NCBI GenBank assembly: GCA_035528175.1
Contig: DATKZC010000025.1
Coordinates: forward strand, 431-64,430
DNA from: Minisyncoccota bacterium
GTDB taxonomy: Bacteria; Patescibacteriota; Minisyncoccia; RBG-13-40-8-A
Direction: 5' to 3'
Length of the DNA stretch: 64,000 nt
Shown: piece after piece, positions 9,301-24,066 of the stretch
How the letters are laid out: each line of letters begins with the position of its first letter
Numbering within the stretch: position 1 is the stretch's first letter
Notes under the pieces: model-generated
Database searches by the model: none
The model's input: the letters and a program-made list of their open reading frames with translations, nothing else
Told to the model about the DNA's origin: nothing
Position numbers and translations under genes: made by a program

Positions 9301-10395
9301 TTATCTCCCGCAGATTTCTACTGCTGCTAATTCTACATTAATTTGCGGGAATTTGGAAAATTTCATTTTATACAAAGTTTCAAGCAGAATATCAATCATT
9401 TTAGAAATCTCTGCCAGAGAAAACTCTTCTGACTGTTTTAAAGCGGTGTTTAACTGTTCCGCGCTTATCTCTTCTTTTATCAGTTTTAAAAGATCTTTGT
9501 CAACTCTTAAAAACATCAATTTTCTGGAATAATTTATCAATGACTCAATAAACTGTACTAAATCATATCCCTGATTCACAAATTTATCAATAAAACTTAG
9601 TACCTCGCTGGAGTTTTTCTTTGCCAATAAATCAATAAATTTTATTGCCAAATTGATATCAACAATACCCAGAATATTTTCAATATCTTCTACGGAAATT
9701 TCCTTATCGCCGCTAAACGCAATCACCTGCCCCAACATGCTTTCCGCATCGCGCATAAACCCTTCAGAATTTAAGGCAATAATCCTCAGTGCTTTATCGC
9801 TGATTTTAACTCCTTCTTTTCTGGCAACCATTTCCAGTTTTTTAATCACGTTCTGCAAAGATAATTTCCTGAAATCAAATCTCTGCACGCGCGAAAGAAT
9901 GGTTGGCAGCATTTTATGCGCTTCGGTTGTGGCAAGAATAAAAATGGCATGGGCTGGCGGTTCTTCTAATGTTTTCAACAGAGCGTTAAAAGCAGCTGGA
10001 GTTAATTGATGCGCTTCATCAATAATAAAAACCTTATACTTACCATGACTTGGAGCAAACCTGATTCTTTCTCTTAATTCCCGAACTTCATCAATTCCTC
10101 TATTTGAGGCAGCGTCGATTTCAATTAAGTCCATTGCCCTACTCTCTATAATCTCCAAACAGGATTCACACTTGTTGCACGGCTCAAAACCGGAATCGTC
10201 CTGGCAATTCACTGCTTTTGCCAAAAGCCGGGCTACTGTGGTCTTACCTGTTCCACGCGGTCCGGAAAATAAATAAGCATGAGCAACTTTATTGTTGTTT
10301 AAAGCACTGGTCAGGGTTTTTATAATATGGTCTTGACCAATTACCTCGGAAAACTTTTGAGGTCTATATTTGCGATAAATCACTAGTTCCGCCAT
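9301..10395 (-). CDS. dnaX: DNA polymerase III subunit gamma/tau, short form
   Basis: YRPQKFSEVIGQ, GPRGTGKTT Walker A, DEAH-like IIDEAHQL, and a CxxC...CxxC zinc module (CNKCESC). Confidence 0.85.
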   Translation of the reverse strand: MAELVIYRKYRPQKFSEVIGQDHIIKTLTSALNNNKVAHAYLFSGPRGTGKTTVARLLAKAVNCQDDSGFEPCNKCESCLEIIESRAMDLIEIDAASNRGIDEVRELRERIRFAPSHGKYKVFIIDEAHQLTPAAFNALLKTLEEPPAHAIFILATTEAHKMLPTILSRVQRFDFRKLSLQNVIKKLEMVARKEGVKISDKALRIIALNSEGFMRDAESMLGQVIAFSGDKEISVEDIENILGIVDINLAIKFIDLLAKKNSSEVLSFIDKFVNQGYDLVQFIESLINYSRKLMFLRVDKDLLKLIKEEISAEQLNTALKQSEEFSLAEISKMIDILLETLYKMKFSKFPQINVELAAVEICGR

Positions 10396-11053
10396 CTTTT
10401 TTATTAAATACGATAAATTTATAACCTACAAAATTCCACACCATTGAGACTACCGAAGCAATTGCCGCAGCAGCAATGGCCCACTGTTCTACATTTAATC
10501 CTCCTATTGCGGGAATGAGTTTAAAAATAGACGAAGCAATTCCGACATTAATCAGAAAACCGATAATCGAAACAATTAAAAACTGCATAAATTCTCTGCC
10601 TAGTTTTTCTGTAGTTTTCTTTTTAAATGTCCAGAATTTGTTCCAAATATAACTATTAATTGTAGCAATAATAAATGAGGTCGCCTTTAATAAAGTGAAA
10701 AGAATAATCGTTATAGAAAAAACCTCAAACAGGACCTTATCCGAATTAATACCGGAGCGCTTAAAGGCAAAGATAAAAAAACTTAATACTCCCCAATCAA
10801 CCAAAGTATTAAATCCGCCGACCAAGACAAACTTTGCCACCTCGTAAGCAACTTTAATCTTTTTGCTGATTATACTTGCCAAATAAAGAAAAATTAAACA
10901 CACAATCGGAAAAACTATCGGCAAAATTATAGTTATTAATCCGTGAATCTTATCGTACAAATCCGGATTTAAAACCCCTTTGACTACTGCCAAAATCAGC
11001 CAGGCAGCAATTTCACCTAAAACCAAAACCGCGATAACATCGTTTTTTTTCAT
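10364..11053 (-). CDS. GtrA-family membrane protein (polysaccharide synthesis/translocation accessory)
   Basis: FVLVGGFNTLVDWGV and FLIVSIIGFLINVG GtrA-like motifs, four TM helices. Its 3' end overlaps the dnaX start by 32 bp. Confidence 0.55.
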   Translation of the reverse strand: MKKNDVIAVLVLGEIAAWLILAVVKGVLNPDLYDKIHGLITIILPIVFPIVCLIFLYLASIISKKIKVAYEVAKFVLVGGFNTLVDWGVLSFFIFAFKRSGINSDKVLFEVFSITIILFTLLKATSFIIATINSYIWNKFWTFKKKTTEKLGREFMQFLIVSIIGFLINVGIASSIFKLIPAIGGLNVEQWAIAAAAIASVVSMVWNFVGYKFIVFNKKDGGTSDLSQI

Positions 11054-11075: not shown

Positions 11076-13529
11076 TTATTTTAAATTTATCTCTTCTGAT
11101 AAAGCGTCTGCGCCAGGGGCATTGTTCGCTTTAATTTTTGATCTTTCAAAAATTTCTTTATCAACAATTACTTTATCACGTCCGTATTTTATACGCGAAA
11201 GTTCCTTAATTCTTATTGCAATTTGAGAATCGCCCCTTGCCGGTGGATTGCATTTAATATTAAACGGCGTGCTAGTCATGTTATTTATCAATAATTTAAC
11301 ATAAGCATTAAAATTATCAATATTCAACAAATCCTGCGCGCTAAAAACCGGTTCAAATTGTTTTACTAAGAATTCTGCATCGTCAGCTCCAACTCTAAAA
11401 ACGGCCATACTACCAACATTTCCAAATACTGCGTCTTTAATTTTATCCTCCAATTGCCCAATAAATTGATGCGCTATAATTAAATTTAATTTATATTTTC
11501 TCGCTTCAGCTAAAATCGTTGAAATACTATCAGTTGTAAAATTCTGGAATTCGTCAATATAAAGATAAAAATCCGGCCTTTGATCTTCTGGGGTATCTAC
11601 TCTGGAAAAAGCTCCCATTAAAAATTTACCAACAATAATTAAACCCAATAAATAACTATTTAAATCACCCATTTTCCCTTTTGACAAGTTTGCTAAGAAA
11701 ATTTTCTTTTCATTCATTATTTTCCTAAAATCAAAAGCGCTTTTCTGCTGACACAAAATAGGACGCATGATATCGTTTGCTAAAAATATATTTGTTTTGG
11801 AAGTAATATAAGGAACAATATTTGCTAACGAGGCCTCTCCTCCTGCTTTTTCAGCTTCTTTTTCCCAAAAATCTTTAACTACAATATTGTTTGTTTTTGA
11901 AAGCTTATATTTTCTGAATTCCGCATCAACCAACACTTTAGGAACCTCTAAAAGCGTTGCACCTGATTCTGGATCATCCATAACCAATAATAACGCTCCT
12001 CTCATATACTGTTGGAATACCGGACCCATTCCCTCTGGCGCTTCAGGAAAGATTTTTTTGAAAATATTTATCATTTCATTGGCAAGAAAAGTTTTTTGTT
12101 CTGGGAATTTCGGATCATACTCAAGCATGTTTAAACCCATCGGTCTTTCAACGTCACCGGGATTAAAATAAATAACATCTTCCGCTCTTTCTGGAGGAAT
12201 CATGCCCAAAATATCATCAACATCTGAACCATGAGGGTCAATAAAACAAACACCTTTGCCATTCATAATGTCCTGCTTAATCATATTAATCATTAATTTT
12301 GTCTTACCTGTTCCGGTTTGACCAATAACATAAAAATGTCTGCGCCTATCATTTTCAGTCATTCTAATTTCTGTTTCCTCGCCCCTAAAAATATTCTTGC
12401 CGAGTAATACTCCCTCTTTGGAAATATTTATCGGCGGAACCGATTCTTTAGATTTTAACCATTTCATTTTTGGAGAACCAAGCGAAGTCAATGGAAAATG
12501 AAAAATACTTGCCACTTCCTCGCTGTTTAAAATCATTTTTTGCCTTTTACTGAATACTCTGAACGAAAAATAGAAAGAGAGTTTTTTTAAGCCGTTTTTC
12601 TTCATTTTTTCCAATCTTAAAGAATTAAGATTAGGCACGCCGAACTGATAAAAAGAACCTTCCATGTGGGATAAAAGTTCTGCTGACCTTTCCTGTGTAT
12701 TCCCGGAAAACAAGAGCCGAATATTCGCCTCAAATCCGGTTTTTGATATTTTTGATTGCAAAGATTTTATTGTTTCTTGGGCATCTAAAGTCATTTGCGA
12801 CTGGATTTGTGGTTCGCCTTCTTTTGGTTTTTTCGCAATTTTTCCCTTTACAGCATCGATAAAACTCTGCCCTCTATTCATTTTTCTTATAATGGATAAC
12901 CCGAATTTATCCCAGTTTTTCGAAGCTGGTTTTAAAATAATCTGCAATGCCCCACCCTCGCCGGTTTCTTCTATTTTGCTCAATGCAGTGGAAATATTTT
13001 CCAGAGGGTCGATTTCCAATTCTTTGTATGTTTTTATCGGCAAAATACTATTTTTTTCTAATTTTAAAAATCCTCCAGCGCAAGCTCCTTGAGGATTGAA
13101 AATATTGTAATCCTTAACCTTTTGCACGATAGCTTTCGGATAAAACCCGTAAATTTGTTTTTCCAAAAATGTTTCGTATTTTTTGGGAGCTGCCAGATAA
13201 AAAGAAATTTCTGCGCCAGAAAAGGGAACAGCCATTTCTAAAACAATATACGGCTGGCCATAGGAAAACTGAATTCTAGAACCCCTCTCTCTTAAAGACC
13301 CCAAACTTGATAAAAATTGCTCCATCACAGCAATCCTGTTTTTCTTTTCTTCGGCTGACAAATCCTCTTTTGTCTCTCTGGGTATCTTAATTAAAAATAA
13401 ACTCATATTCAGAGCCCTGACAATTAATCCCCTGCCCCTCGATCTTTCAACTAACAAAATAAACGCCAATCCGCCGATTAGAAGCACAATCAGCCCGCTG
13501 ACAATATAAATAAATTGCATTGTCTCCAT
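11076..13529 (-). CDS. Fusion protein: N-terminal membrane-anchored domain plus C-terminal TraD/TraG/VirD4-like type IV coupling-protein P-loop ATPase
   Basis: N-terminal TM, then about 380 aa similar in outline to the separate 429-aa protein at 21704-22993. C-terminal YVIGQTGTGKTK Walker A, FIDPHGSD, YLYIDEFQNF Walker B, and the LIIAHQF...FGNVGSMAVFRVG motif shared with the 513-aa ATPase at 20161-21702. Confidence 0.6.
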   Translation of the reverse strand: METMQFIYIVSGLIVLLIGGLAFILLVERSRGRGLIVRALNMSLFLIKIPRETKEDLSAEEKKNRIAVMEQFLSSLGSLRERGSRIQFSYGQPYIVLEMAVPFSGAEISFYLAAPKKYETFLEKQIYGFYPKAIVQKVKDYNIFNPQGACAGGFLKLEKNSILPIKTYKELEIDPLENISTALSKIEETGEGGALQIILKPASKNWDKFGLSIIRKMNRGQSFIDAVKGKIAKKPKEGEPQIQSQMTLDAQETIKSLQSKISKTGFEANIRLLFSGNTQERSAELLSHMEGSFYQFGVPNLNSLRLEKMKKNGLKKLSFYFSFRVFSKRQKMILNSEEVASIFHFPLTSLGSPKMKWLKSKESVPPINISKEGVLLGKNIFRGEETEIRMTENDRRRHFYVIGQTGTGKTKLMINMIKQDIMNGKGVCFIDPHGSDVDDILGMIPPERAEDVIYFNPGDVERPMGLNMLEYDPKFPEQKTFLANEMINIFKKIFPEAPEGMGPVFQQYMRGALLLVMDDPESGATLLEVPKVLVDAEFRKYKLSKTNNIVVKDFWEKEAEKAGGEASLANIVPYITSKTNIFLANDIMRPILCQQKSAFDFRKIMNEKKIFLANLSKGKMGDLNSYLLGLIIVGKFLMGAFSRVDTPEDQRPDFYLYIDEFQNFTTDSISTILAEARKYKLNLIIAHQFIGQLEDKIKDAVFGNVGSMAVFRVGADDAEFLVKQFEPVFSAQDLLNIDNFNAYVKLLINNMTSTPFNIKCNPPARGDSQIAIRIKELSRIKYGRDKVIVDKEIFERSKIKANNAPGADALSEEINLK

Positions 13530-13530
13530 A

Positions 13531-13905
13531 TTATATCGCTTTCAATTTTCCTTGTTCGACTAATTTTTTATAAAACTCATCTATTAAGGCATCGTGGAAT
13601 TCATCCAAAAGATAAGGATTGTCAAGATTTTTGGCGACCTCCACCGCTTCAATAACTCCCTTTTCAAAAGCCACTTCAATAAGAAGCTGAATCTGTCTGT
13701 CTTTTGGCTGGTCTTTTAATTTCTGCGCTGTTTGTATAGTAGCCTGCTGCTGGCCTGCTGCTGGCTGAGCTGTGGCTATTTTTTCGGAAATAGCTTCTTT
13801 TAGAATTTCTTTTTGCTTTTCTGAACTCAATTCGCCTTCTTTGATTTCTGATTGTTTTAAAATCTCGGCTTTTCTTGCCTCAAAATTTTTATATATTTCT
13901 TCCAT
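13531..13905 (-). CDS. Small acidic/Q-rich helical protein of unknown function
   Basis: 124 aa, fills the gap immediately upstream of the fused ATPase (a 1-bp intergenic gap suggests co-transcription). No recognisable motif. Confidence 0.35.
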   Translation of the reverse strand: MEEIYKNFEARKAEILKQSEIKEGELSSEKQKEILKEAISEKIATAQPAAGQQQATIQTAQKLKDQPKDRQIQLLIEVAFEKGVIEAVEVAKNLDNPYLLDEFHDALIDEFYKKLVEQGKLKAI

Positions 13906-13943: not shown

Positions 13944-15737
13944 ATGAAAAAATATATACCTTTATTTTCGATTTTATTAATAATTCTGATGTTGGCCCTG
14001 GCAACCATCAGCCAAAAACAGGAATCAGCAATTATGGACGAGGTTGCCCACACTCCTGCGGGCTATTCTTATTTAACCCAAAAAGATATGCGTTTAAACC
14101 CAGAACATCCACCTTTATTAAAAGATTTGTCCGCCATTCCCGCACTTTTTATGAATAACCTGCCTGCTGGTAGGCAAGGTATCAACTTTCCGGAAGATTT
14201 AAAATCTTGGACAAGCGAAGTAAACAGTCAGTGGGATTTCGGGTTTAAATTTCTATACGAATCTAATAACAACGCTGATAAAATTATTTTCTGGTCCAGA
14301 ATTCCAATGCTTCTACTACTGATTCTTTTGGGGTTTTTCATTTATCGTTGGACAAAAGAATTATACGGAAAACTTCCCGCTCTGTTCGCAGTTTTCCTTT
14401 TTTCTTTTTCTCCAACATTCTTGGCGCACGGTCGTTATGTTACTACTGATGTCGGCGCTGCTTTCGCATTTTTCTTTGCTTCTTATTTCTTCATAAAATA
14501 CCTAAAGAACCAAAACGGAAAAAATCTGTTTTGGGCAGGAATAGCTTTTGGCATTGCCCAGCTTATAAAATTCTCTTTGATTCTGCTTGTCCCCTATTTT
14601 GGAATCTTGATTTTGATTTGGGTCTATATCAAATGGCGGGAAAACAGACAATTCTGGAAAACATTTTTTCATTATATTTTCAGATTTGCCCTGATTATGA
14701 TTATCGGCTATATTCTTGTTTATCCTGTTTATCTGTTCCATACTTATAATTACCCGCAGGAAAAACAAATTTCCGATACAACTTTCATTGCCTCGCAATT
14801 TCCAGTAAAACCAATCGGCGACCTGACAATTTGGATGTCTAAACAGCCAATTCTTAGGCCGTATGCCCAGTATGCTCTAGGATTATTTATGGTTTTCCAA
14901 AGAGCGACCGGTGGCAATACTACCTATTTCTTGGGAGATGTAACCAATAAGGGTTGGAAGAGTTATTTCCCGATTGTATATGCCATAAAAGAACCATTAA
15001 CATTACACATATTAACTATTATTGCTCTTTTGGTTCTGGCCGCTGGCGGCACTAGAAAAGCTTGGTCGCGAGCATTCGAGTCATTTTCAAATTTTCTGAA
15101 AAACCATTTTACAGAAATTGCAATGTTGATTTTCTTGGCAATTTACTGGGGCGCAAGTATTACCAGCAACTTAAATATCGGCATACGTCATATCCTCCCC
15201 ACATTTCCATTTATTTATGTGCTTGTTTCTGGCCAGATAAGGAAATTATTCAATCAAATCCATAATAAAAAAAGAGTTTTTATTACTTGTTGCCTATTAC
15301 TCGGCGCTTTATTGGCATGGTATGCGTTTTCATCCTTATCAATCTATCCTCATTACCTCGCTTATTTTAACGAATTAATTGGCGGCGCTAAAAACGGTTA
15401 TATATATGTAACCGACTCCAATCTCGACTGGGGACAAGACTTAAAACGTCTAGCAGAATGGGTTGAGAAAAATAACGTCCAAAAAATAAAAATAGATTAT
15501 TTCGGCGGGGCAACTGCGAAATATTATTTAGGAGACAAAGCTGAAGAATGGCATGCGGATTATGATCCGCAAAAAGCAAAAAACAGCTGGTTAGCTGTTT
15601 CCGCAACTTTTCTGCAGCAGAATCGCGCCATAGCGACAAAGGGATTTGAAAGAAGAACTGATTACTATGTCTGGCTTAACCAATACGAACCAGTAACCGT
15701 AATCGGGAATTCAATTTTTGTATATTATATTCCGTAA
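13944..15737 (+). CDS. PMT/ArnT-like polyprenyl-phosphate-sugar dependent glycosyltransferase (GT39/GT83 fold)
   Basis: N-terminal TM followed by DEVAHTPAG (the DE motif of PMT-family GT-C enzymes in the first extracytoplasmic loop), about 11 TM helices and a C-terminal soluble domain. Confidence 0.6.
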   Translation: MKKYIPLFSILLIILMLALATISQKQESAIMDEVAHTPAGYSYLTQKDMRLNPEHPPLLKDLSAIPALFMNNLPAGRQGINFPEDLKSWTSEVNSQWDFGFKFLYESNNNADKIIFWSRIPMLLLLILLGFFIYRWTKELYGKLPALFAVFLFSFSPTFLAHGRYVTTDVGAAFAFFFASYFFIKYLKNQNGKNLFWAGIAFGIAQLIKFSLILLVPYFGILILIWVYIKWRENRQFWKTFFHYIFRFALIMIIGYILVYPVYLFHTYNYPQEKQISDTTFIASQFPVKPIGDLTIWMSKQPILRPYAQYALGLFMVFQRATGGNTTYFLGDVTNKGWKSYFPIVYAIKEPLTLHILTIIALLVLAAGGTRKAWSRAFESFSNFLKNHFTEIAMLIFLAIYWGASITSNLNIGIRHILPTFPFIYVLVSGQIRKLFNQIHNKKRVFITCCLLLGALLAWYAFSSLSIYPHYLAYFNELIGGAKNGYIYVTDSNLDWGQDLKRLAEWVEKNNVQKIKIDYFGGATAKYYLGDKAEEWHADYDPQKAKNSWLAVSATFLQQNRAIATKGFERRTDYYVWLNQYEPVTVIGNSIFVYYIP

Positions 15738-19296: not shown

Positions 19297-19689
19297 TTAT
19301 TCTTTTTCCTCCTCTACTACTTTGTCCTCTCGATTAGAAGCAAAAATATATGCTTCATGAACCAAGGAACCATTAATCTGTGTATCCTCTGATATTTTGG
19401 TTTCGGATTTAAAGTCTAATAACGCTTGTATTATATGATCTTCTTTTCGAAAAATCCCAATTCGTGCTATGGATTTTCTTTCTTCTGAATCAAGATGACC
19501 ATCTAATAATCCTTTCGTAAATTTAAATATTTCTCCTCTATTTGCTTCTGTAGCCCAAGAAGCACATAATATAACCGTCCATTTGTCTGTTAATTCATCT
19601 ATTTTCATAATCGCAAATAAAACAACATCACCTTTTGAGGCTTTAATCTCGGATAATATCTTCTGAAATTTTTCTGTTATATTTCCCAT
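19297..19689 (-). CDS. Unknown 130-aa protein, downstream partner of the HEPN-like gene, ending in an acidic tail
   Basis: 13-bp overlap with the upstream gene. No GS...DxD nucleotidyltransferase motif. C-terminal EDKVVEEEKE. Confidence 0.35.
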   Translation of the reverse strand: MGNITEKFQKILSEIKASKGDVVLFAIMKIDELTDKWTVILCASWATEANRGEIFKFTKGLLDGHLDSEERKSIARIGIFRKEDHIIQALLDFKSETKISEDTQINGSLVHEAYIFASNREDKVVEEEKE

Positions 19690-20117
19690 TGTTTTTTTAT
19701 ACGATTAATTAAATTTTTAAGATTATTATGCACCCTAGCTGTTTTAATCTCATCCCAACCAGGATCTAAAGTATATCTTAATGTAGGCCAATTTCCATGA
19801 AACTCCTGTGTGAATCCTGACCAATCTTCATATAACTCTCCATCGTAGCCCAAAACATCTACCATACCGGATAATATTAATAAGGTTTCAAATTCGTGAG
19901 CTCTAAAAAAGGTAGGTATTTTTTCAGACGAAAAATTTTTTTGAGGACAATCTGGATAATCAGATAAGTGAAGAGTTTTACAAATAACTGCCTTTAGAGC
20001 ACATTCTAATGCATAGCCCATCATATATGCAGCCATGCCCCAATCCTTTGCAGATATAAGTGTATTAATTGTCGTTAATCGAGCATCTGTAATATTGCGA
20101 AGATCTTGTGATGTCAT
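19677..20117 (-). CDS. HEPN-like domain protein
   Basis: AKDWGMAAYMMGYALECALKAVI resembles the first HEPN helix (A..EkalKA). Later FRAHEFETLLIL (H.L..L) and NWPTLRYTLDP (R-Y-x-x-P C-terminal HEPN signature). By-eye assignment only. Confidence 0.45.
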   Translation of the reverse strand: MTSQDLRNITDARLTTINTLISAKDWGMAAYMMGYALECALKAVICKTLHLSDYPDCPQKNFSSEKIPTFFRAHEFETLLILSGMVDVLGYDGELYEDWSGFTQEFHGNWPTLRYTLDPGWDEIKTARVHNNLKNLINRIKKQWEI

Positions 20118-20160: not shown

Positions 20161-21702
20161 CTACTTTTTTTTGTCTTCCCCTACTGCTTTTTTGATTGCT
20201 TCACGAATGCCAACAAGGTCAATTTCCGGCTTTTGTTTTTTAATCGGCTGAGATTGAGTATTTGGTTTTTTCTCTCTTTCTTTTTGTAAACAGGACGAAC
20301 AATAAACCGGCCTTACTCCATCTGGTTTAAAAGCAACTTTGGTTTTTTTGCCGCAATCAGAACAAACTGCCTCAAATTTTTTCGCTTCTTCTTCTGTTTC
20401 TGCCACTTCACTCCATCTAGCAATTTTTTCTTCCACTGCTTTTCGCGATATGGTATATCTTTCGCGGGAGAGTTTAATAATTTTATCCTCAAAAGATTTT
20501 TTAGGAACCGTAGATGGAGCCATGGTCTGAGCGCTGAAAGCCCGAGAAGCAACACCATCAATCATTAGTTTTAAATAAATAGTATACTTTGTTAAATTGA
20601 CTAAATCATCGGCAATAAATACTGGCAGAAATTCCCTTTCCAAAAACTCGGCATCATCTGCGCCAACACGGAAAGTAATCAGAGTTCCGACATTGCCGAA
20701 AATCGCATCTCTTACTTTAGTATTTTTGCCTTTATCGCCCATAGAATCTAATTGAGCAACATATTGATGGGCTAAAGTCAGACAGAGATGATATTTTCTG
20801 GCCTCAGAAAGAATGCTCGCAAATGCGTCTGTGGCAAAAGTTTGGAATTCATCAACATAAAGATAAAAATCTTTTCTTTCGTGTTCAAGCACATCCACCC
20901 TACTCATAGCCGCAAGTTGTAATTTGGTTATTACCAAAGCTCCCAACAACTGACTGGCGTCCTCACCAACTCTACCTTTTGAAAGATTGACAATTAAAAT
21001 CTTCCCTTGGTCCATTATCTCCCGCATATCAATTGACGACTTAACTTGTCCGATAATATTCCTGATTAAGGGAGTAGAAATAAATTGCCCGACCTTATTT
21101 TGAATCGGCGCTACTGCTTCTTCCCTGAATCGGTCAGGATATTTGGCAAATTCATTTGTCCAAAACGCTTTTACGCTGGGATCAGTAACCTTTTCCAGAA
21201 CTTTTTGGCGATAATCCTTGTCAGCTAAAAGACGATTAACACCCAAAAGAGTTGAGCCGGGATATTCCAGTAATGATAAAATCGCATTTCTTAAAATATA
21301 TTCCATCCTTGCGCTCCAAACATCAGGCCAGATTTTCTTAAATACGCCCATTAAACCAGAAACAACCAAATGACGGTATTCTGGCTCAACATTCTCCATA
21401 ATATTAAAAGTAATAGGATATTCCAAATCAGCAGGATTGAAATAAATTATATCATTCACCCTGTTAGACGGAACAAAATCAAGCATTGTTTCCGCAAAAT
21501 CTCCATGCGGATCAACAATTGCTACGCCATGCCCATTTTGGATATCTTGAATTGCCATATTTTTCAGAAGTTCTGATTTCCCTGTACCGGTTTTACCAAC
21601 GACATAGACATGCTGGCGCCTGTCTTTTGTTTTTATGCCAAATTTTGTCCGTTTGTTGCGGAAATTTGTTTCGCCTAAAATTGTTATTTCGTTTTCAATC
21701 AT
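20161..21702 (-). CDS. TraD/TraG/VirD4-like P-loop ATPase with a C-terminal zinc ribbon, stand-alone
   Basis: YVVGKTGTGKSE Walker A, VDPHGDF, YLYVDEFQTF Walker B, TLAHQY...FGNVGTLITFRVGADDAEFL. The C-terminal CSDCGKKTKVAFKPDGVRPVYCSSC is a CxxC-x17-CxxC ribbon. Confidence 0.6.
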   Translation of the reverse strand: MIENEITILGETNFRNKRTKFGIKTKDRRQHVYVVGKTGTGKSELLKNMAIQDIQNGHGVAIVDPHGDFAETMLDFVPSNRVNDIIYFNPADLEYPITFNIMENVEPEYRHLVVSGLMGVFKKIWPDVWSARMEYILRNAILSLLEYPGSTLLGVNRLLADKDYRQKVLEKVTDPSVKAFWTNEFAKYPDRFREEAVAPIQNKVGQFISTPLIRNIIGQVKSSIDMREIMDQGKILIVNLSKGRVGEDASQLLGALVITKLQLAAMSRVDVLEHERKDFYLYVDEFQTFATDAFASILSEARKYHLCLTLAHQYVAQLDSMGDKGKNTKVRDAIFGNVGTLITFRVGADDAEFLEREFLPVFIADDLVNLTKYTIYLKLMIDGVASRAFSAQTMAPSTVPKKSFEDKIIKLSRERYTISRKAVEEKIARWSEVAETEEEAKKFEAVCSDCGKKTKVAFKPDGVRPVYCSSCLQKEREKKPNTQSQPIKKQKPEIDLVGIREAIKKAVGEDKKK

Positions 21703-21703
21703 A

Positions 21704-22993
21704 TTATTGGACTATAGGAAGCTCGCTGGGCGGTCCGCCTTTCTTGGCTTCAATCTTAGATAATCTTTCAGCTTCAACAAACTTCCCAGGAAGATGGAAA
21801 ATTGTTGCCAGTTCCTCAATATTAAAAACAAATCCCCTAGTTTTGAGCTTATGAAACGGAAAAAATCTTTTCTTGAAAATACCCACAAAAAATCTTCTCT
21901 GTCCCGGCTCTCTTTTTCTTTTAAAGATTTTCCCCCTTCCAGGAGTGGATTTTTTATTGATTTTAAAACCATTTAGATTTTGGGTATTAAATTGTCTGAA
22001 AAATCCAGCTACTACTGTTGGCTTGTCCTTGGAAAAAAGATCTTTAGGCGCCCAATACATAAATCTTATCATTGTTTTAAATCCTATTTTTCCAATATTC
22101 CTTTCAATTGCCAAAACAACTTCTTTCTGACCTGGGGTTAAAAACGGCATAACTTTTTCGACTTTCTTTTCCCCGCCAACAGCACCCTCCTCGCCCCCCA
22201 AGCCAAAAAATCTTGCAATACCCTGACCCAACGCTTCAAGCCAGCTTCTAGCTTCTTCCACTATCATTAATCCTTTCTTGCTTTCTTTTACTTCTTTGCC
22301 AATTATATTTCCAACCAAATTTTCCCCATCTTTTATCCATTGTTTATCGGTAACTGGACTGATTGGGCTGATTAAGATATGAATGGCAATGCTTTCTTTC
22401 GGATTCAAGCTGCTTAAAAATTCAAAAAGTCCGGCAATGGGGTCAGTTCTTTCTTCTGCTTCTTTTTCCTCAAAAAACACCGGATAAGTCCTAATAGGAT
22501 AAGCATCCTGCTTGGTTAAAATCAATTCTGTGCCCCAGGCATCAAAATCCGCGGTCGGAGTGCCGGGCGGAATACTGTTTATATAATCCTCCGCATCTAT
22601 TATTTCTGCTTGTGGGTATTGGGCGTAAAGATGTGATTCAACAAGATTTCTGTATTTTGCTTCGGTTCTGATATAAAAATGGATCTCCCCGCCATGCCCA
22701 AGCATTTCAATGCTAAACCATGGAGGAAGGTCGCCTTTTATATATTTCTCTTTAAATTTTCTCCCCTTTTCAGCAGCGTGCAAGCCAGCAAAAAACTGCT
22801 CCATGGCTTTCGGCGTTTTAATTAGATCTCTAGGAAATTTTACTTCCAAAATAATCCATTCCAAACCTCGTATATATTTAACAATAAGATAATTCACCCA
22901 GAGATGCTTTAAGAATAAAAAAAGAGCTATTGGTGCGATAATCCACCAATAACTCACAAATATATCCCTATAAATATTAAGGATTTCAGTCAT
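21704..22993 (-). CDS. Membrane-anchored partner protein of the TraD/VirD4-like ATPase
   Basis: N-terminal TM pair, then a soluble domain with the same outline as the N-terminal 380 aa of the fused 817-aa protein (EVKFPRD / LIKIPRET, HFYIRTEAKY / SFYLAAPKKY). A 1-bp gap separates it from the ATPase gene. Confidence 0.5.
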   Translation of the reverse strand: MTEILNIYRDIFVSYWWIIAPIALFLFLKHLWVNYLIVKYIRGLEWIILEVKFPRDLIKTPKAMEQFFAGLHAAEKGRKFKEKYIKGDLPPWFSIEMLGHGGEIHFYIRTEAKYRNLVESHLYAQYPQAEIIDAEDYINSIPPGTPTADFDAWGTELILTKQDAYPIRTYPVFFEEKEAEERTDPIAGLFEFLSSLNPKESIAIHILISPISPVTDKQWIKDGENLVGNIIGKEVKESKKGLMIVEEARSWLEALGQGIARFFGLGGEEGAVGGEKKVEKVMPFLTPGQKEVVLAIERNIGKIGFKTMIRFMYWAPKDLFSKDKPTVVAGFFRQFNTQNLNGFKINKKSTPGRGKIFKRKREPGQRRFFVGIFKKRFFPFHKLKTRGFVFNIEELATIFHLPGKFVEAERLSKIEAKKGGPPSELPIVQ

Positions 22994-23025: not shown

Positions 23026-24066
23026 TTAAGCTAAAATATATTTTCCATTTTCCAATCTCTTTACTTTTGGAGATCGGTGAAGGTTCAAAATGATTGTATT
23101 TGGCCTCACCTGCCGTTTTGCCAGAACAGAATCAATAATTTCTTTCCTGGTTAACGGTTTTTTGTTTTCAACTAAAGTCTTTTGAATCACTTCCTCCACT
23201 GTTCCCGATTCATAACCCCAATCAGTAAGAGCATAGGTTCCTCTTCCTACTAAAATAAATCTTGGGTCTTTTATTAATTCATTATGAACAGTCTGAGTAT
23301 AAGCCGGCTTATCTACGAATATCTTATTTATCAACTCAGTAATAGCAGTAAAATGGCGAGGTTCGCCTTCTTTTTTAAGGATTAAATAGGCGCGGTCTTT
23401 TACTCCCTGCGGAGAAATCTCCGGCCAATAATTTAAACCAATTTCTCCGAAAATATTTTTGTTAATTTCTCTAGAGATTTCCAAAACAACAGAAAACATT
23501 TTTGGGGGAATATTGGAATGCTTCCTGGAAAGTAAATCAAAAACTTCTGATTCATGAAAAACTTTATCGTGCTTCTTAAAATGGTCAATTAAAAAATCAA
23601 TAATTTCCTTGGCTTTCTGACGGGCAGATTTGTGAGCAACCCAGTAAGGATGGAATTTTTCATCTCTGGCTATTCTTTCGAACGGCTCGCCCAATGTCAA
23701 TGCTAAATAAATATAACCCCTTGAAGTATGGGGTTCGGTTGTTCCAGTTGCAGCATGATACAAATAATTCTCCCCCATAATATGGCCGTGCGCGAAAAAT
23801 AAATCATTCAAATAATCGAAAGCTGCCTCAAAAAATGGCAGAACTTTTTCTGATTTAAGAATTTTTATCCCATTTTCTTCTAATTGCCTAACTCTTTCCC
23901 TGGTTATACCATGGTTTTGGCCAATAGCTTCCAGGGTTTCGCTTTTACCGTTCTTTAACCCAAATCGACGCTCAATAACCTCTCTGACCCTCGGGTTGCT
24001 CAAATATAAAAGCGCCTTTTCTATTTTTTTAGAAATATCTTTAGAAATTGTTGATTTCTTGTTCAT
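23026..24066 (-). CDS. Two-domain DNA-binding protein: sigma-70 region 4 HTH plus a C-terminal HARE-HTH-like winged helix
   Basis: N-terminal VREVIERRFGLKNGKSETLEAIGQNHGITRERVRQLEENGIKILK is a textbook sigma-70 region 4.2. The C-terminal FILVGRGTYALTDWGY matches the HARE-HTH GRG.Y.L..W pattern. No sigma region 2 or 3. Confidence 0.5.
   Translation of the reverse strand: MNKKSTISKDISKKIEKALLYLSNPRVREVIERRFGLKNGKSETLEAIGQNHGITRERVRQLEENGIKILKSEKVLPFFEAAFDYLNDLFFAHGHIMGENYLYHAATGTTEPHTSRGYIYLALTLGEPFERIARDEKFHPYWVAHKSARQKAKEIIDFLIDHFKKHDKVFHESEVFDLLSRKHSNIPPKMFSVVLEISREINKNIFGEIGLNYWPEISPQGVKDRAYLILKKEGEPRHFTAITELINKIFVDKPAYTQTVHNELIKDPRFILVGRGTYALTDWGYESGTVEEVIQKTLVENKKPLTRKEIIDSVLAKRQVRPNTIILNLHRSPKVKRLENGKYILA

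Follow-up and report, generated by a model that had tools for sequence, protein, structure and literature searches.

Two chromosomal loci encode DUF8128 and coupling protein-like ATPase modules, one fused and one split, in a Minisyncoccota genome

Introduction

Patescibacteria are host-dependent and account for a large share of bacterial diversity. According to Quinonero-Coronel et al. (2025; PMC12102498), 5,713 homologues of coupling proteins (T4CPs) are found in 2,918 of 3,035 Patescibacteria genomes (96%) and 148 of them lie near virB4, while VirB4 itself is found in 80% of the genomes (2,417/3,035). The authors note that exaptation of the T4CP homologues ‘cannot be ruled out’ and treat the Southlakia ‘t4cp homologue’ as one non-essential gene (PMC12102498). 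In Southlakia epibionticum, the one species tested, the T4SS gene cluster SEML1_0006-0019 is reported to be essential and to lack a recognizable coupling protein (Wang et al., 2023; PMC10633639). The Tn-seq data in Table S1 of that study call SEML1_0142 (a T4CP-like protein of 1019 aa) and a 139-aa ORF upstream of it essential. SEML1_0293, which is located behind a sigma/HARE-HTH gene and resembles the type B gene described below, is listed there as non-essential, and its sigma/HARE-HTH neighbor SEML1_0294 as essential (PMC10633639).

We analyzed two loci in the window, i.e., the whole 64-kb stretch of DNA studied here. They almost certainly represent the same gene families as the orphan T4CPs, including SEML1_0293 and SEML1_0142. 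The likeness consists of about two copies per genome, a location far from virB4, and the position of SEML1_0293 after a Sigma70_r4 + HARE-HTH gene. The family as such is already known (Pfam DUF8128 plus T4CP). The parts of both papers cited here (PMC12102498 and PMC10633639) make no mention of DUF8128 or a VirB4-like N-module, of two paralogue types, of a split form, of a small partner, or of the essentiality of the second paralogue.

Results

Domain organization of the two loci

A sequence-only reading of this DNA had proposed that an 817-aa protein fuses a membrane domain to a TraD/VirD4-like ATPase, and that the same parts recur nearby as two adjacent genes. The ORFs concerned (817, 124, 513, and 429 aa) are all present on the minus strand. 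The fused gene is called type A and the split pair type B; the 124-aa protein is called Q124. The type A locus contains the following features:

11076..13529, minus strand: type A gene (ORF), a single 817-aa polypeptide with a TM helix, a DUF8128 domain, and a T4CP-like ATPase
13446..13514, minus strand: N-terminal TM helix, aa ~6-28, with RSRGRG next to its C-terminal end (Kyte-Doolittle window values reaching 2.95)
12432..13418, minus strand: DUF8128 domain, aa ~38-366 (PF26449; BLASTP match to the 429-aa ORF, E 7e-22)
11130..12425, minus strand: T4CP-type P-loop ATPase domain, aa 369-800
12300-12323, minus strand: Walker A, GQTGTGKT
11544-11570, minus strand: Walker B, FYLYIDEFQ
13531..13905, minus strand: Q124, soluble type A partner of 124 aa (homologue directly upstream of type A elsewhere)

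The type B locus and its conserved upstream neighbor comprise:

23026..24066, minus strand: 346-aa Sigma70_r4 + HARE-HTH protein, the conserved upstream neighbor (Pfam)
21704..22993, minus strand: first part of type B, a 429-aa protein with TM helix and DUF8128
20161..21702, minus strand: second part of type B, a soluble T4CP-type ATPase of 513 aa (1-nt gap to the 429-aa gene)
21574-21597, minus strand: Walker A, GKTGTGKS
20842-20868, minus strand: Walker B, FYLYVDEFQ
20275..20379, minus strand: C-terminal treble-clef zinc ribbon, CxxC-x17-CxxC (zf_Tbcl_2, TIGR04272)
20164-20235, minus strand: K/E-rich tail after the zinc ribbon, ending in a conserved EIDLVGIREAIKKA-type motif

Both modules of the fusion are matched by BLASTP in the split pair, which is located 6.6 kb away. 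The 429-aa protein and residues 16-366 of the fusion align end to end (E 7e-22, 25% identity), and the 513-aa protein is matched by residues 369-799 (E 1e-109, 40% identity); both matches are far beyond chance. The motifs on which the similarity had been based (FPRD/IPRET, HFYIRTEAKY/SFYLAAPKKY, FYLY[IV]DEFQ, AHQ[FY], and FGNVG..FRVGADDAEFL) are also present. The Rosetta-stone inference drawn from the fused and split forms is sound. It is further backed by single-polypeptide orthologues of the split pair in other classes of Patescibacteria, by fused forms on Bacillus plasmids, and by a split pair on a haloarchaeal conjugative plasmid. The split of type B is lineage-specific, and the two loci are ancient paralogues.

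The ATPase modules

Profile searches place both ATPases in T4CP/HerA-type Pfam families. TrwB_AAD_bind exceeds its cutoff of 20.5 for the 817-aa (26.6 bits) and the 513-aa protein (44.1 bits). TraG-D_C (cutoff 22) is passed by the 513-aa protein with 25.5, while the 817-aa protein remains below it with 21.7. DUF87 matches as well, and T4SS-DNA_transf stays just below its cutoff (19.6 vs. 20.1). The best NCBIfam matches are TraD and VirD4 families, and none of the equivalogs comes near its cutoff (in one example, 51 vs. 366 bits). Both proteins have intact Walker A and Walker B motifs. The fold is TrwB-like, down to the helical domain that interrupts the NBD. The two-helix TM domain that usually precedes the NBD directly in T4CPs was not found in either protein.

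The VirB4 models behave differently. There is no Pfam match of the ATPases to AAA_10 or to CagE_TrbE_VirB, which we take to be a VirB4-type model family, and the NCBIfam scores are 20 bits for VirB4_plasma (cutoff 590) and 18.7 bits for CD1110 (cutoff 325). Using hhalign, 297 columns are aligned with TrsK of pGO1 (VirD4) and only the P-loop with TrsE (VirB4). A search for the FtsK_SpoIIIE motor model, the 4-TM region, and the gamma domain found none of them.

The DUF8128 module

A hydropathy scan detected one N-terminal hydrophobic helix in both the 817-aa and the 429-aa protein and no TM helix in the 513-aa ATPase. Positively charged residues on the C-terminal side of the 817-aa TM helix suggest that the remainder of the protein is cytoplasmic. 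Of the earlier description, the fusion and the ATPase stand, but the term ‘membrane domain’ does not fit the N-module, which is predicted to combine one TM helix with a large, presumably cytoplasmic domain with a fold like that of the VirB4 N-terminal domain. Precomputed matches assign PF26449 to each of the 120 homologues listed for the 429-aa protein and to P0121, a protein from a Ca. Paceibacterota MAG that is identical to the 817-aa protein and also carries PF10412 and PF01935. The DUF8128 domain of the 817-aa protein closes with a conserved EE[LV]A[ST]IFH[FL]P motif, and the domain shows conserved columns in A1 and A2.

The likeness to the VirB4 N-domain is seen in the predicted structure of DUF8128 (Foldseek TM 0.36). 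The relation rests on the predicted fold only because hhalign comparisons of the DUF8128 profile with TrsD of pGO1, with the Bacillus plasmid VirB4-like protein, and with the haloarchaeal 1099-aa protein gave no match. A link via TrsD, which is reported in the literature as VirB4-N-domain-like, was accordingly rejected. The 429-aa protein showed no meaningful match to PDB sequences. The AF2 model of the 817-aa protein has a pLDDT of 84.5 and a full-model pTM of 0.57, which leaves the interdomain orientation uncertain. A profile search of 1.84 billion representatives yielded 27,949 sequences at E<=1e-3 and 8,552 at E<=1e-30, numbers that are not DUF8128-specific because the profile had grown to cover the ATPase too.

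Type A and its small partner

Type A is found in a conserved neighborhood of PMT, Q124, type A, GtrA, and DnaX. As noted before, the small Q-rich protein abuts the fused copy with a gap of 1 nt, and the junction reads TAA-T-ATG. Q124 has a Q-rich middle and a conserved C-terminal helical motif of ~55 aa (..P[YH][LI].D[ED]FH[DR].L..). A survey of relatives for conserved neighbors found a Q124 homologue directly 5' of type A in loci L002, L003, L082, L083, and L084. In metagenome loci found using Q124 alone, it adjoins type A in 25 of the 28 that were independent and testable. In 10 of 150 representative clusters, DUF8128-ATPase proteins carry the Q124 motif as an N-terminal fusion. Judging from adjacency and fusion, Q124 is a real partner of type A. 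Some type A homologues carry long C-terminal extensions (up to ~1,200 aa), which were considered as a further Rosetta stone and rejected, being P/A-rich, of low complexity, and without a Pfam domain.

Type B and its neighbors

The junction between the 429-aa and 513-aa genes also reads TAA-T-ATG, and an ATPase homologue is found immediately 3' of the DUF8128 gene in 69 of 80 species loci. The zinc ribbon of the 513-aa ATPase is recognized by Pfam zf_Tbcl_2 (8.3e-15) and by TIGR04272 (6.2e-15). Of 63 orthologues, 28 have its CxxC..CxxC signature; the tail motif is found both with and without this signature. The zinc ribbon and the conserved tail probably bind the substrate or an adaptor. Just 3' of the 513-aa gene there is a small, non-conserved two-gene cassette with a weak PDC-M28A match.

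The Sigma70_r4/HARE-HTH gene, the neighbor that the survey found for type B, is located directly upstream of DUF8128 in 71/80 loci, including loci without an adjacent SecDF. The arrangement recurs in L090 and in Southlakia (SEML1_0294 upstream of SEML1_0293). Whether its product belongs to the type B machine is uncertain. A role as dedicated DNA adaptor of type B is weakened by the Southlakia data, since the sigma/HARE-HTH orthologue is essential and the adjacent type B-like gene is not.

Genomic setting and conservation

The genes around both loci encode aminoacyl-tRNA synthetases, DnaX, SecA/SecD/SecF, and Fe-S assembly and glycan synthesis functions, and the GC content of both loci is the same as that of their surroundings. 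Neither locus lies in a T4SS cluster, as had been stated: Pfam scans covering ~45 of the window's larger ORFs detected no VirB4, VirB6, VirB8, relaxase, or pilin, and no VirB3/VirB6/VirB8-type membrane partners adjoin the ATPases among these ORFs. A promoter/terminator scan of the 10.3-24.3 kb region gave promoter-like sites no more numerous than in shuffled sequence.

The order SecA..SecD-SecF-sig-DUF8128-ATPase is found across 80 species, with a median identity of 60% for the type B ATPase, compared to 59% for SecA and 52% for SecD. One NJ tree, built without support values, places type A and type B in distinct Patescibacterial clades, apart from plasmid and phage homologues. Both loci are core, housekeeping-grade genes and not part of a mobile element.

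Relatives on plasmids

Pfam's own DUF8128 model matches many fused Bacillaceae proteins. The B. subtilis plasmid NZ_CP032854 encodes a fused homologue of 886 aa (hhalign E 1e-42 over 646 columns), the first gene of an operon that also encodes a Replic_Relax relaxase, TcpC, TcpE, and a VirB4-like ATPase of the AAA_10 family. The Haloterrigena plasmid pHTS138 contains a 399-aa DUF8128-like ORF (hhalign probability 98%, E 2.9e-14) with a T4CP directly downstream, in a cluster whose other annotated products include a pilin and a conjugal transfer protein. These Bacillus and haloarchaeal plasmid relatives occupy the coupling-protein slot.

Discussion

On balance, we lean toward reading both loci as membrane-tethered coupling ATPases of the VirD4/TraD/TrwB type (FtsK-HerA superfamily), most likely serving a chromosomal T4SS. 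The DUF8128 N-module would anchor the motor at the membrane and dock it on a membrane channel complex, by analogy with the VirB4 N-domain and its contacts with VirB3 and VirB8. The P-loop motor would form a ring and use ATP to feed its substrate, DNA or unfolded protein, to the channel. The T4SS served would be encoded elsewhere in the genome by a cluster with no coupling protein of its own, and type A would be translationally coupled to its 124-aa helical partner. Both paralogues would trace back to coupling proteins carried by the conjugative elements of monoderms and archaea, in which the same fused or split architecture stands beside a relaxase and VirB4; in Patescibacteria they are part of the vertically inherited core genome and no longer mobile.

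T4SS coupling is opposed by the location of the genes, as neither copy is near a T4SS gene in the window and phylum-wide only 148/5,713 homologues are near virB4 (PMC12102498), and by the dispensability of the type B-like gene in Southlakia, in which the T4SS is essential (PMC10633639). A distinctly less probable but serious alternative, suggested in the sequence-only reading, is that both are stand-alone translocases, taken over from conjugation for a task common to all Patescibacteria, such as the import or export of DNA or protein via some channel independently of a T4SS. The wider distribution of T4CP homologues compared to VirB4 (2,918 vs. 2,417 of 3,035 genomes), together with their near-complete lack of adjacency (PMC12102498), agrees with this, and the difference of 96 to 80% suggests that some genomes may use T4CP homologues without a T4SS. 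MAG incompleteness can nevertheless account for part of the gap, since a gene present twice is more readily found than one present once. A conservation equal to that of SecA, stable housekeeping neighborhoods (Sec and sigma/HARE-HTH genes for type B; PMT, GtrA, and DnaX for type A), and the exaptation remark (PMC12102498) also fit stand-alone translocases, but neither copy has a co-conserved gene that could encode the channel, and the plasmid relatives examined lie in T4SS or conjugation clusters. In addition, Southlakia has a canonical, essential FtsK (SEML1_0096) and a dispensable ComEC, which leaves two obvious roles outside the T4SS either occupied already or dispensable; the ideas of an FtsK replacement and of a ComEC motor are weakened by the same data. 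For a cell-surface motor, as suggested in the sequence-only reading, nothing was found in support.

It is improbable that the proteins are divergent VirB4 paralogues, i.e., assembly or energizing ATPases rather than coupling proteins. The predicted fold of the N-domain resembles that of VirB4, and total length and domain order are as in VirB4. The motor argues otherwise, since T4CP models match it and AAA_10 does not, and hhalign aligns it entirely with TrsK. Furthermore, the Bacillus plasmid homologue adjoins a relaxase, the position of a T4CP, on a plasmid that encodes an AAA_10 VirB4 as well, and a VirB4 clade of their own is already known from Patescibacteria. We regard it as very unlikely that the loci are left over from an integrated conjugative element or a prophage, or act in anti-phage defence as mad8/DndH/HerA-like ATPases. 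The PADLOC mad8 matches (E 3e-15 and 4e-18), a full-length match to phrog_5156 (E 1e-74), homologues in Bacillus phages of the SP-10 group, and the cassette with the weak PDC-M28A match point in that direction. Against it, integrase, relaxase, and defence partner genes were not found, the GC content matches the surroundings, the housekeeping gene order is kept across 80 species at SecA-level conservation, the family is near-universal in the phylum (PMC12102498), and the two Patescibacterial clades stand apart from the homologues found on plasmids and in phages. Equally slight is the probability of FtsK-like pumps for chromosome segregation or septal DNA, which would share the superfamily, the membrane tether, and the housekeeping-level conservation. 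ECOD indeed places the P-loop domain of SEML1_0142 on an FtsK-like template, but the FtsK_SpoIIIE Pfam match, the 4-TM region, and the gamma domain are all absent, and the essential FtsK of Southlakia is a separate, canonical protein.

From architecture and gene order, we infer that SEML1_0142 and SEML1_0141 correspond to type A and Q124, respectively. The 921-aa P0483, picked by length as the Southlakia orthologue, was dropped, as its neighborhood differs. We tentatively propose that type A and Q124 could be the missing essential coupling/energizing ATPase of the T4SS or, alternatively, an essential T4SS-independent translocase with which the epibiont exchanges macromolecules with its host. 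Either way, the family would be a VirD4 relative with a VirB4 architecture, a VirB4/VirD4 evolutionary intermediate, and a core gene of the superphylum. The orphan T4CP homologues thereby gain an anatomy, with a putative VirB4-like docking module and a VirD4-like motor, two ancient paralogues, fused and split forms, and a small dedicated partner for type A. The published Tn-seq data (PMC10633639) also contain another, overlooked T4CP-like gene, which is essential together with the small ORF upstream of it. Work on this gene in Southlakia could reveal the cargo of the essential secretion machinery and its source of power. A VirB4-like N-domain on a VirD4-type motor, if the predicted fold is right, also bears on the divergence of the two T4SS ATPases.

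Comparison with known conjugation ATPases

Among the closest known systems, which also include the HerA, FtsK, TcpA, and EccC translocases, the Bacillaceae plasmid proteins (e.g., WP_121549396.1, NZ_CP032854) and the pHTS138 pair have the same modules in the same order, with homology across both. The Bacillus form is fused and the Haloterrigena form is split, and both are only 23-27% identical to the Patescibacterial proteins. They differ in being located inside conjugation clusters, by a relaxase and VirB4, and without a Q124-like or sigma/HARE-HTH neighbor.

Compared to VirB4 (TrwK of R388; Thermoanaerobacter VirB4), there is no sequence-level match, and the proteins described here bring their own TM helix instead of relying on VirB3. 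Alongside the plasmid relatives examined, a VirB4-like ATPase is encoded separately, the haloarchaeal one (1099 aa) being identified only by its annotation as a conjugal transfer protein. Compared to VirD4, TrwB, and TraD, one TM helix and a DUF8128 module of ~330 aa take the place of the canonical two-helix TM domain, and this N-terminal part may come from a separate protein (429 aa). The genes are chromosomal core genes, single-copy per type, with no relaxase or T4SS genes found nearby, and they are conserved at the level of SecA, unlike T4CPs, the sequences of which have been described as highly diverse (PMC12857230).

Organization of the fused and split genes

The window encodes the same two modules twice, once as a fused 817-aa protein (type A) and once as a split 429-aa/513-aa pair (type B). 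The ORF calls place all four genes where the sequence-only reading had put them:

11076-13529, minus strand: 817-aa ORF, type A
13531-13905, minus strand: 124-aa ORF, the Q-rich small protein Q124 directly upstream of type A
20161-21702, minus strand: 513-aa ORF, type B ATPase
21704-22993, minus strand: 429-aa ORF, type B DUF8128 part

Both gene junctions (124-aa/817-aa and 429-aa/513-aa) read TAA-T-ATG, which suggests translational coupling. The fused protein and the split pair are homologous module by module. In the 817-aa protein, residues 16-366 match the 429-aa protein over its whole length (BLASTP, 25% identity, E 7e-22), and residues 369-799 match the 513-aa protein (E 1e-109 at 40% identity). 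The sequence-only observation and the core interpretation drawn from it were right. A single hydrophobic helix opens the 817-aa and 429-aa proteins alike, none was found in the 513-aa ATPase, and each of the two ATPases has intact Walker A and B motifs. The window derives from a Candidatus Paceibacterota MAG, and its 817-aa protein is identical to P0121.

The motor and the N-terminal module

The ATPases had been described as TraD/VirD4-like, and the HMM searches point the same way. TrwB_AAD_bind (Pfam, cutoff 20.5) scored 26.6 and 44.1 bits. DUF87 and TraG-D_C match both ATPases, TraG-D_C (cutoff 22) at 25.5 bits in the 513-aa protein and just under the cutoff, at 21.7, in the 817-aa protein; T4SS-DNA_transf fell short (19.6 against 20.1). 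For the 513-aa protein Pfam also reports a treble-clef zinc finger at the C-terminus. The top NCBIfam matches are TraD and VirD4 families, all far under their equivalog cutoffs, with VirB4 families much weaker. The VirD4-like TrsK of pGO1 aligned with the motor across 297 columns (hhalign); the alignment with TrsE, the VirB4 of pGO1, was confined to the P-loop. By sequence the motor is therefore a VirD4/TrwB/TraD-type coupling ATPase (T4CP), while the structural results place its predicted fold in the VirB4/VirD4 group (AF2 model of the 817-aa protein: pLDDT 84.5, pTM 0.57). Type B ATPases (orthologues at loci L002-L081) carry at the C-terminus a variable low-complexity stretch and then a conserved end motif, approximately KEVDLxxLRKxLEEA (window 20164-20379, minus strand). 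A zinc ribbon CxxC-x17-CxxC is restricted to 28 of 63 type B ATPase orthologues.

The N-terminal module contains Pfam DUF8128 (PF26449), an assignment precomputed on P0121 and on all listed homologues. Its predicted fold (AF2 model of the 429-aa protein: pLDDT 81, pTM 0.78) resembles VirB4 N-domains, with TrwK as the top Foldseek match (prob 0.99, E 1.8e-3, TM 0.36); no sequence-level signal was found between DUF8128 and VirB4 N-domains or TrsD. In the fused model, the break point between the 429-aa and 513-aa proteins maps to a linker predicted with low confidence (residues 351-358) and comes immediately after the conserved motif EELA[ST]IFH[FL]P.

Two paralogue types and a gene fission

Types A and B are two ancient paralogues with core-genome status. 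They form separate clades (NJ tree and domain-wise identities), neither of which takes in the haloarchaeal, Bacillus-plasmid or phage proteins. In other classes each type B orthologue is one continuous polypeptide (822-1124 aa), so that the proposed Rosetta stone holds between orthologues, and the split in this lineage reflects fission of an otherwise fused gene. The ATPase of these fused orthologues shares 46-55% identity with the split ATPase versus 39-44% with the 817-aa protein. One of them, P0499 (locus L090), lies behind topA and a sigma/HARE-HTH gene.

A scan of GTDB species representatives matched at least 600 stretches; of the 600 listed, 579 encode DUF8128 relatives, and the best 80 were retained. 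All 80 contain DUF8128; the following gene encodes the ATPase in 69, an MltG/YceG-like protein in eight, and the contig ends in three. The eight MltG/YceG-like genes (295-346 aa; L043, L046, L051, L063, L066, L074, L077, L081), identified from sequence motifs, occupy the place of the ATPase, and in these genomes the N-terminal module is orphaned or the ATPase is encoded elsewhere. In 71 of the best 80 loci a gene with Sigma70_r4 and HARE-HTH domains lies directly upstream of DUF8128; here it encodes 346 aa (23026-24066, minus strand; Sigma-70 region 4 at aa 24-71, HARE-HTH at aa 222-283). Sec genes occur near DUF8128 in the same set (SecF in 51 loci, SecD in 49, SecA in 16). Across 64 species loci, median identity is 60% for the type B ATPase, 59% for SecA, 52% for SecD and 36% for DUF8128.

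Just downstream of the 513-aa ATPase lie two overlapping small ORFs of 146 and 130 aa (19297-20117, minus strand), for which no counterpart was found across the best 80 loci. The 146-aa protein weakly matches PADLOC PDC-M28A (3e-5) and phrog_5737 (4.6e-8), and the pair may represent the insertion of a toxin-antitoxin or defence cassette.

The type A locus and its small partner

The conserved gene order at type A is PMT glycosyltransferase, small protein, type A, GtrA and DnaX. The PMT-family glycosyltransferase (13944-15737, plus strand) and the GtrA-family membrane protein (10364-11053, minus strand) recur as flanks in three distant contigs (L082, L083, L084), a stable glycosylation neighbourhood. 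Q124 is a partner protein of type A. All long contigs examined preserve its C-terminal ~55 aa upstream of type A, and a metagenome scan queried with Q124 alone returned 31 loci, 28 of them with room downstream: type A begins right after the match in 25 and lies within 4 kb in the remaining three. N-terminal fusions of the Q124 motif to the DUF8128-ATPase protein appear in 10 of 150 representative clusters; there the motif usually replaces the TM helix, and in one case a two-helix hairpin comes after it.

Some type A homologues (P0298, P0302, P0299, P0290, P0306) have long, P/A-rich, apparently disordered C-terminal extensions (750-1200 aa) with the recurrent short motifs PPIGAPP[VI]DL and S[IL]xDI[TM]GG; a search for Pfam domains in them gave none. 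Elsewhere in the window, the genes turn from minus to plus orientation at ~35.9 kb, and GC skew, clearly negative before this point, becomes roughly zero or positive. The region at 36-64 kb is a large surface-glycan biosynthesis cluster encoding a sugar transferase, a Wzt-type ABC transporter, NeuB, a cytidylyltransferase, several GT1/GT2/GT4 enzymes and several radical-SAM enzymes (two with B12-binding and two with SPASM domains).

Function and alternative explanations

In a sample of 3,035 Patescibacteria genomes, VirB4 was reported in 2,417 and 5,713 VirD4-type T4CP homologues in 2,918, only 148 of them near virB4; the authors allowed for exaptation because "the" Southlakia t4cp was non-essential (Quinonero-Coronel et al., 2025; PMC12102498). 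According to Wang et al. (2023; PMC10633639), neither a coupling protein nor a relaxase can be recognized in the essential type IV secretion system (T4SS) cluster of Southlakia epibionticum. Tables S1/S2 of that study hold two T4CP-like genes, SEML1_0293 and SEML1_0142. SEML1_0293 (921 aa) was called NE at all three passages. Directly before it lies the essential SEML1_0294 (349 aa; Sigma70_r4 27-72, HARE-HTH 225-283), an order that is the type B arrangement; SEML1_0294, annotated as 'RpoS', is the counterpart of our 346-aa protein and a member of a core family enriched in Patescibacteria. SEML1_0142 (1019 aa, P-loop 381-800) was ES at all three passages and follows SEML1_0141 (139 aa; GD/ES/ES) after 12 bp, as in the type A/Q124 arrangement. 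Matched by architecture rather than sequence, this pair is presumably orthologous to type A and Q124.

We infer that DUF8128 acts as tether and dock, holding the motor at a membrane complex, and that the motors would pass substrates to the chromosomal T4SS. Adaptor or substrate-recognition roles may fall to the zinc ribbon and tail in type B and to Q124 in type A. The main rival is a T4SS-independent translocase. An FtsK-like reading is poorly supported; Southlakia has a canonical FtsK, which is essential, and its ComEC is dispensable. A mobile-element remnant and a defence system are poorly supported as well.

Comparison with known systems

The motors have conjugative relatives that sit in the T4CP slot. 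Tblastn against plasmids matched 589 records (Bacillus, Streptomyces, Staphylococcus, haloarchaea, Sulfolobus), 56 of which cover 80% or more of the fused protein. On B. subtilis plasmid NZ_CP032854 the homologue is fused (886 aa; hhalign E 1e-42, 646 columns) and occupies the coupling-protein position, first in an operon whose further genes encode a Replic_Relax relaxase, TcpC, TcpE and an AAA_10 VirB4-like ATPase; many Bacillaceae proteins of this kind are matched by Pfam's own DUF8128 model. The archaeal conjugation cluster of Haloterrigena plasmid pHTS138 has the split form, as in the type B pair: a 399-aa DUF8128-like ORF (hhalign prob 98.2%, E 2.9e-14) lies directly upstream of a 1034-aa T4CP, and other genes of the cluster are annotated as a pilin and as a conjugal transfer protein. 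Bacillus phages of the SP-10 group likewise encode fused homologues (phrog_5156). In SP-10 gp203 (L085, 5773-8304) both Walker A (GAGKD for GKS/T) and Walker B (NE for DE) are degenerate, and the protein may be catalytically inactive.

No description was found in the searchable literature of the VirB4-like N-terminal module, the paralogy of types A and B, the gene fission, the small partner protein or the connection with the essential Southlakia pair; the family itself is of a known kind, the T4CPs, noticed before in Patescibacteria.
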